Source: a virus
Lineage: Duplodnaviria; Heunggongvirae; Uroviricota; Caudoviricetes
Reading direction: 5' to 3' (one strand)
Length of the DNA stretch: 7,150 nucleotides
IMG/VR virus record: IMGVR_UViG_2609459794_000001
A model generated the notes under the pieces. That model was given only the letters and a program-made list of their open reading frames with translations, was not told the origin of the DNA and did not search any database. Numbering within the stretch: the first letter of the stretch is position 1; the number at the start of each line of letters is the position of its first letter. Shown here piece by piece: positions 326 to 7,150 of the stretch. A program made the translations under genes and the position numbers.

Positions 326-734
326 GTACCGCGCTATCGACTTCATTTACGAAGGCAATCAGATAACGTGCGGCGATAAACTGGAGTCCGTGACCGGGAA
401 ATTGCAATTCGACATCAGCAGCCAGTACGACAAGCAACAGGAACATCTGCTGTTTACTCCTCTGTTCAAAGCGGATAACGCCAGAGTTTTCGACCTTGAA
501 GTTGAATCGTCAACTGGAGTTGCGCAGTATGCTGACCGCCTTTTTCTCTCTGCAACCACTGACGGCATCAATTACGGGCGTGAGCAGATGATTGAGCAGA
601 ATGAACCGTTCGTTTACGACAAACGCGTTTTGTGGAAGCGTGTCGGGCGAATAAGGAAAAATGTCGGCTTCAAATTGCGCGTTATCACTAAGTCACCTGT
701 CACTCTCTCAGGCTGCCAGATAAGGATTGAGTAA
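326..734 (+). pseudogene. C-terminal remnant of P22-like tail hub protein (gene 10 equivalent), 5' part separated by IS629 insertion
   Basis: The frame of the 390..734 track ORF (GTG at 390) stays open upstream with no stop all the way to the IS junction at 325/326, so the ORF is a fragment of a larger gene. Its stop overlaps the start of the tail needle gene (TAATG at 732..736), as gene 10 does with gene 26 in P22-like late operons. Assignment to gene 10 is by synteny; I cannot confirm it by sequence recall. Confidence 0.55.
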
Positions 735-1435
735 TGGTTGATTCATCACTGAATGATCCTGTCGTGGTTCAGGCTACGCGCCTTGATGCTTCAATTTTGC
801 CACGCAATATATTCAGCCAGTCTTACCTGCTGTATGTCATAAATCAGGGAGCTGATGTCGGCGCAATTGCCGGGAAGGCAAATCAGGCTGGTCAGGGCGC
901 TTACGATGCCCAGGTAAAAAACGATGAACAGGATGTCGAACTGGCTGATCACGACGCAAGAATCACCGCAAACACAAAAGCGATAAATCTCCTTGAGGTC
1001 AGGTTAACAACCGCCGAAGGGAAGATAGTCGTACTGCGTAGCGATGTTGATTACTTGCTGGATGAGGTTATCGATATTCAGGGGCATCTGGTCACTGTTG
1101 ACCAAAGACTGGATGACGTAGAAAACGATGTCTCTGGCATTAAGAGTGATTACGTATCGAAAACCGTAACAGAATCGCAGTCTCTTGCGTCACCGCTGGA
1201 TGTAAAAACATCATATTCAGTTGATGGAATTCAGGTTGTTGGAGCAAGAAATACCGGATGGACTGCAGCCACAGGTACACCTCTTCTTGGCTCATTCAAC
1301 GCTAACCAGTCATACACTGTCGGCACTACGTACACACAATCCGAAGTCGCAGCTATCGCTACAGGTTTGGAGCAGGCGCGGCAGCGTATTCTGGCGCTTG
1401 AAACAGCACTTAGATTACATGGGTTGATTGACTGA
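734..1435 (+). CDS. Tail needle protein (P22 gp26 family), 233 aa
   Basis: ORF of 233 aa, the same length as P22 gp26 as I recall it. The N-terminus ([35 protein letters not shown]...) resembles the conserved gp26 hub-binding domain. A heptad-like coiled-coil character runs through the middle and the protein ends ...[22 protein letters not shown] lies 7 nt upstream of the ATG. Position between the gene 10 remnant and gene 14 fits. Confidence 0.8.
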
Positions 1436-1890
1436 TGATTACATTCAAACCAACGCGAAACATCGACCTGATAGAAGCTGTCGGAAATCACCCTGACATT
1501 ATTGCCGGAAGCAACAACGGTGATGGATACGACTATAAACATGATTGCCGTTACTTTGAGGTGAACGTGCACGGGCAGTTCGGCGGCATTGTTTACTATC
1601 AGGAAATTCAGCCGCTGACATTCGATTGCCACGCCATGTACCTGCCAGAGATTCGCGGCTTCAGCAAGGAAATCGGGCTGGCGTTCTGGCGATACATTCT
1701 GACTAACACCACCGTTCAGTGCGTCACATCGTTCGCTGCACGCAAATTCCGCCACGGGCAGATGTACTGCGCAATGATTGGCCTTAAGCGTGTCGGAACC
1801 ATCAAGAAATACTTTAAAGGCGTGGATGACGTGACTTTTTACAGCGCCACACGCGAAGAACTAATCGACTTCCTGAATCACGGGAGATAG
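1435..1890 (+). CDS. P22 gp14-like virion assembly/ejection-associated protein, 151 aa
   Basis: ORF whose start overlaps the tail needle stop (TGATG at 1433..1437), indicating translational coupling. It occupies the gene 14 position between the needle gene and the gp7-like gene. Assignment is by synteny only. Confidence 0.6.
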   Translation: MITFKPTRNIDLIEAVGNHPDIIAGSNNGDGYDYKHDCRYFEVNVHGQFGGIVYYQEIQPLTFDCHAMYLPEIRGFSKEIGLAFWRYILTNTTVQCVTSFAARKFRHGQMYCAMIGLKRVGTIKKYFKGVDDVTFYSATREELIDFLNHGR

Positions 1891-1892
1891 CC

Positions 1893-2585
1893 ATGTTATA
1901 TGCATTTAAGCTGGGCAGAAAACTGCGCGGCGAGGAACCTTATTGCCCTGAAAAAGGCGGGAAAGGTGGTAGCTCTGATAAAAGCGCAAAGTATGCCGCA
2001 GAAGCTCAGAAGTATGCCGCAGACCTGCAAAATCAGCAGTTCAACACCATCATGAACAACCTGAAGCCGTTTACTCCTCTGGCTGATAAGTATGTCGGCA
2101 GCCTCGAGAACTTATCGTCTCTGGAAGGGCAAGGTCAGGCACTTAACCAGTATTACAACTCTCAGCAGTACAAAGATCTTGCTGGTCAGGCTCGCTATCA
2201 GAGTCTGGCTGCAGCGGAAGCAACAGGTGGATTGGGTTCCACTGCAACCGGTAATCAGTTAGCAACAATCGCACCAACGCTTGGTCAGCAGTGGCTGTCT
2301 GGTCAGATGAACAACTACCAGAATCTGGCAAACGTTGGGCTTGGTGCTCTGCAAGGTCAGGCAAACGCAGGGCAGACATATGCCAACAACATGAGTCAGA
2401 TTTCGCAGCAAAGTGCGGCTCTTGCAGCGGCAAATGCCAACAGACCATCAGCAATGCAATCTGCTATTGGCGGAGGTGCGTCTGGTGCTATTGCTGGGGC
2501 CGGACTTGCGAAATTAATTGGTTCATCAACTCCGTGGGGGGCTGCGATCGGCGGCGGTCTTGGTCTGCTTGGCTCGTTGTTTTAA
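1893..2585 (+). CDS. Ejection (DNA transfer) protein, P22 gp7 family, 230 aa
   Basis: N-terminus MLYAFKLGRKLRGEEPYCPEKGGKGG, a Q/N/A-rich middle and a Gly/Ala-rich hydrophobic C-terminus (...GGGASGAIAGAGLAKLIGSSTPWGAAIGGGLGLLGSLF) match my recollection of P22 gp7. Length is within one residue of P22 gp7 as I remember it (229 aa). SD GGGAGA lies 5 nt upstream of the ATG. Confidence 0.8.
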   Translation: MLYAFKLGRKLRGEEPYCPEKGGKGGSSDKSAKYAAEAQKYAADLQNQQFNTIMNNLKPFTPLADKYVGSLENLSSLEGQGQALNQYYNSQQYKDLAGQARYQSLAAAEATGGLGSTATGNQLATIAPTLGQQWLSGQMNNYQNLANVGLGALQGQANAGQTYANNMSQISQQSAALAAANANRPSAMQSAIGGGASGAIAGAGLAKLIGSSTPWGAAIGGGLGLLGSLF

Positions 2586-2595
2586 GGGGTAATCA

Positions 2596-3975
2596 ATGGC
2601 TACGTGGCAACAGGGTATTAATTCTGGTGGTTTTCTGGCTGGCATCGGTACGCAAAATGAGAATGCGCCAAAGGCAAGCGACATTAACGCAACGCTTGGT
2701 CTGATCCGCGAAAACAATGAACTGGCTCGCTCAGGTGTAAATAACGTTGGCCTGACCGCGTTACGTGGTCTGGCTGGAGTTGCTGATATTTACAATCAGG
2801 AACAGCAACAGAAAGCTATTAGTGAGTTCAATAAGGTTCACGCTGATGCATGGGCTTCTGGTGATCCATCGGGACTATTTAAGTTTGCCCAGGAAAATCC
2901 AGCGTTTGTTGCACAGGCACAACAGGCGTTTTCCGGTCTTAATGATCAGCAACGCAACGATATGGGCGATTTAGCCATGAGGGCTAACGTCGCTCTTTCT
3001 CAGGGGCCGGAAGCCTACAGTAAATTCATTACTGACAACAAGGACAGGTTAAATCGCGTTGGGGCTAATGCTGACTGGATGATTCAGACAGGTATCCAGA
3101 ATCCAGAGCAGCTATCACACATGCTGACTACTATGTCTCTCGGTGCACTTGGGCCAGAAAAGGCGTTTGCTGTTCAGGACAAGATGGCTGGTCGTGAAAT
3201 TGACAGAGGCAGGCTGGCAGAGACAATCCGCAGCAATCAGGCTGGCGAGGCGCTAACAGCACGTGGTCAGAATATCACGATGCGCGGTCAGGATTTATCG
3301 ATGCAGAGAGCATCAATGAAAGGGTCGGTTGGGAATAATGAGCGTACAGTTCAGTTAGCAGATGGCAGAACTGTAACGGTAGGCGGGAAGCTTCACGGCG
3401 CTGGGGCTAATGCGTTCTACGAAGGTATCGACAACGAGGGGAATATGGTTCGCGTCCCTGCTGGCTCTATTGCCGCTCCGGCTACATCGGCAGCAAGCGC
3501 GCAGAATTACGCAATGAAGAAAGATCTTGATGCAATTTCTGGTGCATCAATTGACGATCTTGGCTTCATGACTGGCATTACAGGCTCTTCAGGTTCTCCT
3601 GCTCTTGGTGCAGATATTCGTAGCCGTGCATCTGGTGGTGATCAGAGGAAACTATACAACGCTGCACAGCGAATCCAAGGAAAGATGCAGAATCAGGGCA
3701 TTGCAGCAGCCAGAGACATGGGGGCATCCGGTATCAACACCGTTGCAGAAGCAAAGATGTATTTTCAAGGTATGCCACAGGTTGATTTCTCAAGCCCTGA
3801 AGCACTGCAACAATCAATGCGCGACATTCAGCAATATACCGACAATTACAACCAGCAATATAACGTTAATGTCGGTAATGGAGGGAAGAAATCATCAATG
3901 CAACAGCCGCCTACTCAGCAATCAGCAGGAGGTAGCTACACGTCAAAATCAGGCATTCAATTTACGGTGGAATGA
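2596..3975 (+). CDS. Ejection (DNA transfer) protein, P22 gp20 family, 459 aa
   Basis: N-terminus [22 protein letters not shown]... and the size (459 aa; P22 gp20 is about 470 aa as I recall) fit gp20. SD AAGGGG lies 6 nt upstream of the ATG. It follows the gp7-like gene and overlaps the gp16-like gene start. Confidence 0.8.
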
Positions 3976-5813
3976 TGAAAGTAACTGCAAACGGTAAGAC
4001 ATTTACCTTCCCTGATGGTACGAGCACGGAAGATATTGGCACCGCCATTGATGAGTATTTTGCTGGTCAGGCTGTTCAGCAACAAACAGTTAATCAGGCC
4101 AATAATGAACCAGCACGTGAAGAACCATCATTGATGCAACAAGCTGGCGATTGGCTCACTGGTGGTCAAAGTGCAGGGCAAATTGCAGAACAGGCTGGTC
4201 GTGGTCTGGTAAACATACCATTTGACGTATTGCAGGGTGGCGCAAGTCTGATTAATGCAATCAGTCAGGGGCTTGGTGGGCCAAAAGTATTGGATGATGT
4301 TTATCGTCCAGTAGACAGACCGACAGACCCCTACGCACAAGCAGGTGAAACAATTGGTGGGTATTTAGTTCCAGGAGTTGGAACGGCAGGAAGCATGGCT
4401 ATTGGATCACTGGCAGAGGCCGCAAATCAGAAAGGCGATTTCGCACAAAATGCAGCTAAAAATGCCGGAGTTAACCTTGCCGCTCAGGGTGTTCTTTCCG
4501 CAGCAGCAAAGGGAATAGGGCGTGGAATAACGGCTATAAAAGGTGATATTGCGCCAGAAGTGGCGAAGAAAATTGCCACATCAGAATCGATGGGCGTGAC
4601 ACCAATGACATCTGATGTTATCCCGCCGAAAAATGCTTTCACTCGCGGCCTTACTCAGGATGCCGAGGGGGCTTTGCTCGGAACAGGCTCAAAGAGAGCG
4701 GAGCAATATGCAACGCGTAGTAAGCTGGTAAGCAATTATTTTGACCGTTTTGGTGAGTACAACCCTGATGATGTGGTGAAATCTCTGACCACCACGTTAA
4801 GGGGGCGGAAGGATGCCGCTGGCGCTGTTATCAATGACGTCACCAATAAAATGGGTAATGCCGCAGTTGATACCACAAATACCATGAATGCTCTGAATAC
4901 AGCGATCGCAAGACAGGAACGACTTGGGACGTCTGCCAATCAAAGCCTGCTTACATCCTTGCGTAACCTACGTGAAGAATTAGCAAACCCTGCAACTGAT
5001 TTGGATGTTACGTTTGATCTCTTGCGTCAGCACAGAACAGCATTTAGATCTAATGTTCAGGGAGATGCTATGGTCTTCCCCAACCAGGCAAAAGCAGCTA
5101 CCAATATGGTAGAGAATGCAATGTCAAAAGACCTTCGTAACGCAGTTGCAAAAAACCTCGGTGCATCAGACGCAGCAAAATACCTTAAAGCAAATTCTGA
5201 TTATGCAAACGTTTATAATAAGGTGCTTAATAAAAACATTGCTAACAAACTCAACAAGGCAAGCAGTGAAGCCAGCCCTGAACTTATAAATACCGTTGTA
5301 TTAAGCAGAAAACCATCTGACGTGAAACGAATATGGAGCGCGCTGGATGATAAGGGGAAAGATGCTATGCGTGCAGCTTACGTCAGCAAAATAGCGGAAA
5401 AGGCCGGGGACTCTCCAGCCAAGTTCATCACTGAAGTTAATAAGCTGAAATCTCAGTCAGGCGGTGAAATTTACAACACTATTTTTTCTGGAAAGCACAT
5501 GAAAGAGCTTGATGCTCTTCATGAAGTTCTACAGCAAACAGCAAGGTCAGACACCGCAAATGTAGTAACTCAGACGGGGCAATCGCAAGCCAACAGGATA
5601 AGGACGATTGGCGCAACTGCGACCCTTGGCGTATCAATGGGGCTTGAGGCTGGTTTTGGTGCAATGATGCGCTTGTATGAGTCCAAAGCAGCAAGGAATG
5701 CTCTCTTACGTCTGGCAAACACTAAAGCTGGAACGCCAGCTTATGAAAGAGCGCTAAATCAGGCTGCTACTGCCGTGCGCCCGCTCTTAGCTAACGAAGC
5801 GACCCGGCAGTAG
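3972..5813 (+). CDS. Ejection (DNA transfer) protein, P22 gp16 family, about 612 aa
   Basis: N-terminus (M)[31 protein letters not shown]... and the size (P22 gp16 is about 609 aa as I recall) fit gp16. There are tandem ATG codons at 3972 and 3975; the first overlaps the gp20 stop (ATGA). A GGTGG SD-like motif ends at 3970, which favours the second ATG (3975) as the true start. Confidence 0.8.
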
Positions 5814-5835
5814 CACTGTAAGCCAAGGACGGCAT

Positions 5836-6330
5836 TTATTTTATAGTTTTTATGAATTCTTTATTAAATCCCTTAGCTTCTCCGGGGTATCTTCCAAAGA
5901 CAATTTTTATAAAAACAGAAAAAATAAAGATAGCAACGCTTAACAACAGTTGCAGTATCATTGGAACCCAAAGAACTACAGGCTCTATATTCATGAAACC
6001 AAATATTCTTCCGGCGATCATGGCGAAGTACCACACTGTTATCAGCAAACTTAGTGGCATATGAATTACTGATATTACCAATCCAAGAGCATCAGTAATT
6101 CTATTTTCAAATTTTTCAGGAGAAAACTTTTCTTTAAGGTAATTCAGTGCGCAGGCCTCATTCTCTGGATTTTCAGCATTTTTCCCTATAGCAATAGAAA
6201 TCTCAGATATCCTTGATTCAATTCTTTTGCGTTTAATAAAACTAGAAAAAAAGAACCACGCAATCTGCAACCCTATCCCCATAAATAGAGTTGCGGCAAC
6301 TAGCACAGCGTAACTCATAGAATCAGACAC
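5836..6330 (-). CDS. Small inner-membrane protein with three predicted transmembrane helices; candidate SieA-type superinfection exclusion protein (by position)
   Basis: Minus-strand ORF in a strongly AT-rich segment. Three long hydrophobic stretches are visible ([25 protein letters not shown]; [26 protein letters not shown]; [28 protein letters not shown]) separated by charged loops. It is convergent with gene 16, 22 bp away, at the locus where P22 carries sieA. Start is uncertain: GTG at 6330 has AGAGG 5 nt upstream (preferred), ATG at 6318 has no well-spaced SD, and the track's longest version starts at GTG 6402. Confidence 0.6.
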
Positions 6331-6518
6331 ACCAACCTCTTTAGTTTTTCTAGTTACTTTGTCACGATAGGATATGCGAATTGATAAAACTAAATTGCGC
6401 ACATGATAACTCAGTAATAATTGTTAATGAAAACATGATCACCTATATTGCACAAGGCGAAACAGGAAGCATAATCTGGTTTCATGAGTGTGATCACGTT
6501 TGGGTAAATCAAAGTCAA

Positions 6519-6541
6519 GGTGATGCTGCCAACTTACTGAT
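6519..6541 (+). repeat. IS1 left terminal inverted repeat (IRL)
   Basis: Direct read of GGTGATGCTGCCAACTTACTGAT at the start of the IS1 copy. Confidence 0.85.
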
Positions 6542-6573
6542 TTAGTGTATGATGGTGTTTTTGAGGTGCTCCA

Positions 6574-6849
6574 GTGGCTTCTGTTTCTATCAGCTGTCCC
6601 TCCTGTTCAGCTACTGACGGGGTGGTGCGTAACGGCAAAAGCACTGCCGGACATCAGCGCTATCTCTGCTCTCACTGCCGTAAAACATGGCAACTGCAGT
6701 TCACTTACACCGCTTCTCAACCCGGTACGCACCAGAAAATCATTGATATGGCCATGAATGGCGTTGGATGCCGGGCAACTGCCCGCATTATGGGCGTTGG
6801 CCTCAACACGGTTTTACGTCACTTAAAAAACTCAGTCCGCAGTCGGTAA
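6574..6849 (+). CDS. insA: IS1 InsA (transposition inhibitor / N-terminal part of InsAB' transposase), 91 aa
   Basis: GTG-initiated ORF giving [91 protein letters not shown]. This matches IS1 InsA, including the zinc-finger Cys pairs and helix-turn-helix, with a few substitutions relative to the canonical sequence as I recall it. Confidence 0.92.
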
Positions 6850-7150
6850 CCTCGCGCATACAACCGGGCAGTGATGTGATTGTCTGCGCTGAAATGGACG
6901 AACAGTGGGGCTACGTCGGTGCTAAATCACGTCAGCGCTGGCTGTTTTACGCGTATGACAGGATACGGAGGACAGTTGTGGCGCACGTTTTCGGTGAACG
7001 CACTCTGGCCACACTGGCGCGTCTTCTGAGCCTGCTGTCGGCCTTTGAGGTCGTGGTATGGATGACGGATGGCTGGCCGCTGTATGAATCACGCCTGAAG
7101 GGAAAGCTGCACGTTATCAGCAAGCGTTACACTCAGCGCATTGAGCGACA
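6768..7150 (+). CDS. insB: IS1 InsB reading frame (C-terminal catalytic part of InsAB' transposase), truncated by window end
   Basis: Manual translation of the -1 frame from ATG 6768 gives [64 protein letters not shown]..., matching IS1 InsB. The frame is open to the window end. Not in the ORF track because no stop is reached. Confidence 0.88.
6825..6831 (+). promoter_or_regulatory. IS1 A6C programmed -1 ribosomal frameshift motif (insA to insB fusion site)
   Basis: AAAAAAC read directly at 6825..6831 within TTAAAAAACTC near the end of insA. In IS1 this slippery run is the established site of the -1 frameshift that produces InsAB' transposase. Confidence 0.75.

Follow-up and report, generated by a model that had tools for sequence, protein, structure and literature searches.

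The AT-rich island at positions 5814-6518 of the window, by which we mean the whole 7,150-nucleotide stretch of viral DNA analyzed here, consists of a type A sieA superinfection-exclusion gene with its initiation leader and part of its upstream spacer, and belongs to a P22-like prophage of the E. coli/Shigella type. The minus-strand gene converges on gene 16 and comes first in the variable region that separates genes 16 and 9 (the 'ant moron'), and we put the probability of this assignment at about 0.88. A sequence-only reading of the window had taken the island for a horizontally acquired moron cassette and for the accessory part of the window. Both views are supported: the segment encodes the superinfection-exclusion protein SieA beside virion genes, it is a discrete mosaic block relative to P22, its slot is variable, and the region is already named 'ant moron' in PMC2629481. 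Three qualifications apply to the moron interpretation. About 63% of the coding GC deficit comes from amino acids, the right edge of the island is an artefact of IS1, and the search for a promoter and a terminator of its own gave no more than weak candidates for this copy.

A P22-like virion module between two insertion sequences

The window carries the 3' fragment of gene 10 followed by genes 26, 14, 7, 20 and 16, the order of a P22-like virion module. Gene 16 (3972-5813, plus strand) encodes a 613-aa DNA ejection protein (PHROG 770 'DNA transfer protein', E 2.4e-280). On the left, positions 1-325 are the end of an IS3-family (IS629-like) element, 98-99.7% identical to annotated IS3/IS629 family transposase, that truncates gene 10; homology to intact prophages starts at 326, within gene 10, and the gene 10 fragment matches Pfam Phage_stabilise over positions 357-469 only. 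On the right, IS1 runs from its left inverted repeat past the window end (6519-7150, plus strand), with insA at 6574-6849. The N- and C-terminal Pfam domains of InsA (PF03811 and PF12759; zinc ribbon and HTH) were recovered at E 2.7e-21 and 8.7e-31, the terminal inverted repeat GGTGATGCTGCCAACTTACTGAT is present, and the element is 98-99% identical to annotated IS1/IS1X2 copies. Its end at 6519 was set by aligning it with one intact prophage and with two IS1 copies that lie in other surroundings. IS1 matches that apparently start 15-19 nt to the left of 6519 were dismissed as chance similarity of AT-rich target flanks.

The phage segment (326-6518, 6.2 kb) therefore belongs to a prophage that is at least damaged, since IS elements bound it at both ends and gene 10 is truncated. 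This arrangement suggests that the prophage is degraded and that its host is rich in IS elements, as are Shigella and certain E. coli strains. Intact relatives, 98-99% identical over the shared segment, carry gene 16, sieA, a 193-aa ORF, an mnt-like gene, arc, ant and the tailspike gene. The whole window was found in no complete E. coli genome, the best matches covering 84%, and a species-representative genome collection held 0 copies of the exact phage/IS1 junction.

Mosaicism and rearrangement were also seen elsewhere in this group. Gene 16 has a mosaic patch that is 96.6% identical to JEP4 at 4119-4535 and 87% identical to Sf101 at 4072-4480, and the rest of the gene, outside 4072-4535, is unrelated or weakly related to the DNA of these two phages. 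At two loci (L008 and L014, 6427-8004) gene 20 is fused to a lysis-gene fragment, giving a 525-aa product with Phage_lysis and Inj_translocase domains; the head genes are missing, making these internally deleted prophages that retain genes 16 and sieA. HNH/NUMOD4 homing-endonuclease genes lie in or beside gene 10 of some relatives that are collinear apart from them (L009:2667-3251 and L010:4225-4770), and the window has none.

The island encodes a type A SieA

The sieA gene occupies 5836-6330 on the minus strand and encodes 164 aa from a GTG start. PHROG 7745 ('superinfection exclusion SieA-like', in the category 'moron, auxiliary metabolic gene and host takeover') matches at E 1.2e-108, its full length of 164 positions covering residues 25-188 of the mechanically called ORF. 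Amino-acid identity is 91% to P22 SieA and 99% to the copies in E. coli prophages; at the DNA level, identity to the sieA genes annotated in 41 Salmonella phage records is 92.6%. Residues 145-157 carry the cytoplasmic motif published for SieA, FxRYPxEAxxFNK, and a Kyte-Doolittle 19-residue scan, a crude method, shows three blocks of hydrophobic sequence, near residues 5-32, 78-113 and 112-150.

SieA had no match in the Pfam-A, NCBIfam and PADLOC libraries searched. The Pfam-A library used holds no gp16 or SieA model, although PF26808 and PF26849 occur in a precomputed table, where PF26849 (SIEA) is listed for identical products of relatives; because of that listing, we read the Pfam-A negative as a matter of library version and not as evidence against the identity of the gene. 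A SieA pattern search of genome contigs returned 162 pattern matches, 0 of which were confirmed.

Gene 16 and sieA converge, with 22 nt (5814-5835) between their stop codons, and each of the 30 type A loci examined has a gap of this length. The ORF is free of disabling changes, which is weak evidence of selection because the adjoining virion genes are intact too. Two plus-strand ORFs, at 5852-6064 (70 aa) and 6381-6545 (54 aa, running into IS1), were judged spurious; they match no family and lie antisense to sieA and in the spacer. RefSeq/PGAP annotation of relatives calls sieA a 'hypothetical protein', of 188 aa in one genome (L001:9511-10077) and 164 aa in another (L003:9511-10005).

Composition and edges of the island

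Exact counts give the island a GC content of 0.355, as AT-rich as had been claimed from the letters alone, and a hand-counted sample described as about one-third GC (5881-5940) recounts to 0.317. The flanks are near half GC, also as claimed, at 0.487 for the virion genes (326-5813), 0.532 for the left IS element (1-325) and 0.536 for IS1 (6519-7150). The proposed sliding-window check finds the drop: 200-nt windows across 5801-6500 all fall at 0.35-0.37, and the remaining windows lie at 0.43-0.575 almost throughout. A milder dip (0.38-0.405) occurs inside gene 16 at 5101-5400, where the protein is Lys/Asn-rich. Non-island windows of 705 nt range from 0.426 to 0.525 (mean 0.487, sd 0.021), placing the island about 6 sd lower, and against the virion genes the binomial z is -7.0. 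The island and its coordinates are thus confirmed as correct, far beyond chance.

The edges had been called sharp, and this holds on the left, where the island begins at the gene 16 stop codon (5813), but not on the right as a native edge. The right edge is sharp because GC-rich IS1, with its first base at 6519, inserted there; homology to intact prophages is lost at 6519/6520, in agreement with the alignment to other IS1 copies. A two-state maximum-likelihood segmentation places the low-GC segment at 5834-6562, taking in the AT-rich first ~40 nt of IS1. In uninterrupted relatives low GC runs on and rises gradually, from 0.327 in the spacer to 0.387 in the 193-aa ORF and 0.40-0.44 in the immunity I genes.

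The sieA gene has a GC content of 0.337 in P22, between flanks at 0.47-0.50, and of 0.358 in E. coli MS1657. As low GC is common to these copies, it is a trait of the gene module and not of this locus.

A mosaic block in a variable slot

Compared with P22, sieA falls in a block of about 94% identity (90-98%) that spans approximately 5750-6348, flanked on the left by sequence of about 72% identity (0.5-0.78) and on the right by unrelated sequence. Sliding identity to P22 puts the left boundary within the last ~60 nt of gene 16, at about 5750. On the right, a single point, 18 nt upstream of the start codon (6348), marks where the sequences of the window lineage, MS1657 and P22 part from one another. 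So discrete a block is the pattern expected of a horizontally exchanged module.

The sequence-only reading had proposed comparing this locus across related phages for different cargo. Behind related or near-identical copies of gene 16, the slot is either empty or filled by type A sieA, type B sieA or one of at least five unrelated ORFs. Among annotated phages with a related gene 16, sieA is missing from JEP4, L, Sf101 and APSE-2: JEP4 has a C2-like repressor in the slot, L has orf62, Sf101 has a 97-aa ORF and APSE-2 has nothing. Type A sieA is present in 18 of the 76 IMG/VR contigs in which gp16 is at least 98% identical to that of the window and at least 1.5 kb of downstream DNA is available. 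Across 88 loci with a related gene 16 and at least 700 nt downstream, seven cargo types, including sieA types A and B, are associated with a conserved leader, and the 10 loci without the leader have other arrangements. In the window sieA is the next gene after gene 16; the side toward gene 9 is seen only in collinear relatives, which read 16, sieA ... tailspike.

In the Juhala/Hendrix sense, the definition of a moron includes its own promoter and terminator. The segment is present in some close relatives and absent or replaced at the same position in others, and its composition is unlike its surroundings (GC 0.35 vs 0.49; GC3 0.31 vs 0.39-0.62). As to transcription signals of its own, there are weak sigma-70-like matches and one weak hairpin inside gene 16, and the P22 PsieA region is unconserved.

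A conserved leader ahead of interchangeable cargo

The right mosaic boundary of the sieA module coincides with a short leader, AAAACTAAAGAGGTTGGTGTG (6328-6348, minus strand), which holds the Shine-Dalgarno sequence AAAGAGG and the GTG start; similarity to both P22 and E. coli MS1657 stops at its outer end, 6348. Allowing up to 3 changes, the leader as a 21-mer, AAAACTAA(G/A)GAGGTTGGTGTG, was found in 64 of 92 loci, ahead of five unrelated cargo ORFs; allowing 1 change, its 12-mer core, AAAACTAAGGAG, was found in 78 of 88, ahead of seven. The survey covers one gp16 lineage plus P22 (leader loci L001-L003, L008-L015 and L018-L097) and may include redundant contigs. Five of the cargo ORFs begin at the shared GTG and have their stop codons 17-24 nt from that of gene 16, and all seven end 13-24 nt from it.

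The five that share the GTG are SieA type A (30 loci, 164 aa, GC 0.34-0.36), a signal-peptide protein (PHROG 2651; 18 loci, 129 aa, GC 0.40-0.415), a transmembrane and coiled-coil protein (PHROG 8100; 12 loci, 109 aa, GC 0.37), a hydrophobic peptide (PHROG 21338; 3 loci, 62 aa, GC 0.34-0.35) and an N-terminally anchored protein of no family (1 locus, 149 aa, GC 0.35). The other two, a lipoprotein (PHROG 6067; 161 aa, GC 0.44) and a SieA type B-like protein, start at an ATG 10 nt past the leader. The latter resembles the type B SieA of prophage HS1 in E. coli HS (PMC10883804) and is found in this slot, after the same leader, at four related loci (the L057 group). It shares the SieA motif, in the form FNRYPGEARKFNK, and is 29% identical to type A over 148 residues; it differs from type A in its length of 212 aa, in an N-terminal extension of about 30 residues and in its start codon.

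All of the cargoes resemble envelope proteins, having N-terminal signal, lipoprotein or transmembrane segments, and all except the lipoprotein are clearly AT-shifted against gene 16 (GC 0.47). Upstream of the leader we found at least 11 unrelated sequences, which combine freely with the cargo types. Most of these upstream types share ATCATCTGGTATCCTGC, which overlaps the annotated -10 region of P22 PsieA; the type found in the window, U1, is without it.

It is tempting to view the first position of the slot as a fixed 'expression socket', in which a leader of about 12-40 nt (AAAACTAAGGAGGTTGGTGTG, often after ATCATCTGGTATCCTGC) stays in place and whole ORFs are swapped behind it, five of them precisely at the same start codon. 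We offer this idea tentatively, and consider the odds to be somewhat against it. An earlier description of the leader and cargo pattern was not found, though one may exist.

The spacer and the signals around sieA

Between the leader and IS1 lies an AT-rich non-coding spacer of the U1 type (6349-6518), 170 nt long with a GC content of about 0.33-0.35 and truncated by IS1. E. coli YA-1 and loci L008-L015 carry an identical spacer as far as 6519; in intact relatives it is 28 nt longer and reaches the stop codon of the 193-aa ORF. IS1 thus sits 28 nt before that stop codon, and the 193-aa ORF is displaced or deleted in the window. By comparison with the intact relatives, the insertion at 6519 separates sieA from its same-strand upstream genes, the 193-aa ORF and the mnt-like gene. 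The 193-aa ORF (L011:10577-11158, minus strand; PHROG 23516; GC 0.387, GC3 0.314) always occurs with the U1 spacer type and has no Pfam, NCBIfam or PADLOC match.

A search of the whole window against Rfam (E <= 1) returned no RNA family, and an explanation of the spacer as an sRNA or riboswitch was dropped for that reason. The 188-nt interval between sieA and IS1 holds no convincing sigma-70 promoter, the best minus-strand matches agreeing at 8-9 of 12 positions with poor hexamers, and the P22 PsieA region is not conserved, as similarity stops 18 nt upstream of the start codon. An outward IS1 promoter, from a TTGGCA-like -35 in the inverted repeat, was rejected after a scan to 6560 gave no acceptable -10 at the right distance. 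The only terminator-like site near sieA is a 7-bp minus-strand hairpin, AAGCTGG-CGTT-CCAGCTT (5742-5725), which lies some 95 nt past the sieA stop and within the 3' end of gene 16. This hairpin has no T-run, and its region does not fold significantly better than shuffles (z -1.6).

Alternative readings

The product could be longer than we propose. The mechanical ORF (5836-6402, 188 aa) is open from a GTG at 6402, and both PGAP and metagenome gene callers annotate 188 aa in the U1 upstream context, so that the true protein would be an N-terminally extended SieA comparable to types B and C. We regard this as very unlikely. The 24 extra residues occur only where the upstream type is U1, neither P22 nor MS1657 has them, the PHROG profile begins at residue 25, and the added residues are basic and hydrophilic, bringing no further transmembrane segment of the sort described for types B and C. 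No Shine-Dalgarno sequence precedes the GTG at 6402, whereas the GTG at codon 25 has AAAGAGG ahead of it at the right spacing, an initiation site conserved among unrelated cargo ORFs. Because of this site, and because the 24 upstream codons are missing in P22 and MS1657, the gene was taken as 5836-6330 and the extension (6331-6402) as probably untranslated. A more general doubt attaches to the composition of the gene, as low GC might be a mere by-product of the protein encoded, a small and hydrophobic membrane protein with a high content of Ile, Phe, Lys and Asn, and so be silent on horizontal origin. When the SieA amino acids were re-encoded with the synonymous codon usage of the neighboring virion genes (5000 simulations), the expected GC was 0.400, compared with 0.350 observed and 0.487 in the virion genes. 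Amino-acid composition accordingly accounts for 0.087 of the 0.138 deficit (~63%), in keeping with an I+F+K+N+Y content of 36.6% in SieA vs 22.1% in virion proteins, and composition alone is for this reason weak evidence of foreign origin. The remaining 0.051 (~37%) is synonymous codon choice, and this AT shift is significant (z -3.9; 0 of 5000 simulations as low). The gene has a GC of 0.349-0.350 and a GC3 of 0.309, compared with 0.39-0.62 in neighboring genes, the non-coding spacer upstream is as AT-rich as the gene (0.346), and sieA is absent or replaced in near-identical gene 16 backgrounds, with sharp mosaic boundaries. As a sole explanation the by-product reading is largely refuted by the synonymous-site and non-coding composition, and we hold it to be very unlikely overall. 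The low GC would instead combine the amino-acid make-up of a small hydrophobic protein with a real AT shift at synonymous and non-coding sites, as is typical of prophage cargo exchanged laterally.

The identification of the island as sieA leaves aside the activity of this copy, which may be a silent relic: an intact gene that goes unexpressed and has no current function, in a decaying prophage, IS1 having cut off its transcription signals 188 nt upstream, such as read-through from the mnt-like/orf193 operon. IS1 does abut the spacer at 6519, two same-strand genes lie directly upstream in intact relatives, and gene 10 is truncated by the IS3-family element. The U1 type lacks (T)ATCATCTGGTATCCTGC, the element of most other upstream types that overlaps the annotated P22 PsieA -10 region, and the scans found neither a good promoter nor an IS1-hybrid one. 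However, the same U1 type accompanies sieA in 18 intact-looking loci and may therefore hold an unrecognised promoter. The ORF, free of disabling change, is 99% identical to the copies in intact prophages, and sieA of P22 is itself weakly transcribed in lysogens (PMC10883804), so weak signals may suffice. On balance we think it unlikely, if by no means far-fetched, that this copy is silent, and our reading of the island as a type A sieA concerns identity and stands apart from that question.

Relation to known systems and significance

The window's gene closely resembles type A sieA of P22 (Susskind 1974; Hofer 1995; Leavitt et al. 2024, PMC10883804), having the same 164-aa length, Shine-Dalgarno sequence with GTG start and 22-nt convergent gap. 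The two proteins share the FxRYPxEAxxFNK motif and the pattern of three hydrophobic segments, at the 91% amino-acid and 92.6% nucleotide identity noted above. Unlike in P22, the sequence upstream of -18 is unrelated, the annotated PsieA is absent and IS1 lies 188 nt upstream; the prophage is of the E. coli/Shigella type, with a gp16 76% identical to that of P22.

The passages of Villafane et al. (2008, PMC2629481) that treat the region between genes 16 and 9 describe it as the 'ant moron', with ten types in sixteen genomes and sieA in P22. The window agrees with that account in location and in carrying a non-morphogenetic gene at a place where these differ from phage to phage. It departs from it in that only the first gene is left, orf193, the mnt-like gene, arc and ant having been displaced or deleted by IS1. 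A conserved leader with exact ORF replacement was not encountered in those passages. In a 2024 study, sieA homologues were always found between genes 16 and 9, in 22 of 66 P22-like phages, and were divided into types A, B and C (PMC10883804). Thus sieA, its position and the variability of the region were already published, and the island is a correct recognition of a known feature.

The SieA proteins of P22 and HS1 are inner-membrane proteins with three transmembrane helices, expressed from the prophage at a low level in the case of P22, and they block DNA injection by P22-like phages only (PMC10883804). Mutations that allow phages to escape fall in the C-terminal regions of both gp16 and gp20, the reported target, and P22 SieA is active in E. 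coli too (PMC10883804). By homology, the window's SieA should act as P22 SieA does, and it would stop the DNA of superinfecting P22-like phages from crossing the inner membrane, most likely through interference with the trans-envelope conduit of gp20 and gp16. In this it would be comparable to HK97 gp15, Tuc2009 Sie2009 and TP-J34 Ltp (PMC10883804), which are likewise small moron-encoded prophage envelope proteins that block DNA entry by related phages. Those proteins differ in having no sequence relationship to SieA and in targeting long-tailed phages through the tape measure protein, not the ejection proteins of short-tailed phages.

The sequence-only reading was right to flag the one accessory gene among virion genes. 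The identification also has value for annotation, as sieA appears as a 'hypothetical protein' in several E. coli RefSeq genomes, sometimes with a spurious 24-codon extension. If the tentative socket model is true and has gone undescribed, the leader would be a recombination linker, and the slot a concrete example of linker-mediated ORF replacement. Five uncharacterised cargo families would then be predicted to be prophage-expressed envelope proteins, with candidate superinfection-exclusion functions interchangeable with that of SieA, and the leader may offer an inexpensive means of picking out new superinfection-exclusion candidates among the genes of P22-like prophages.
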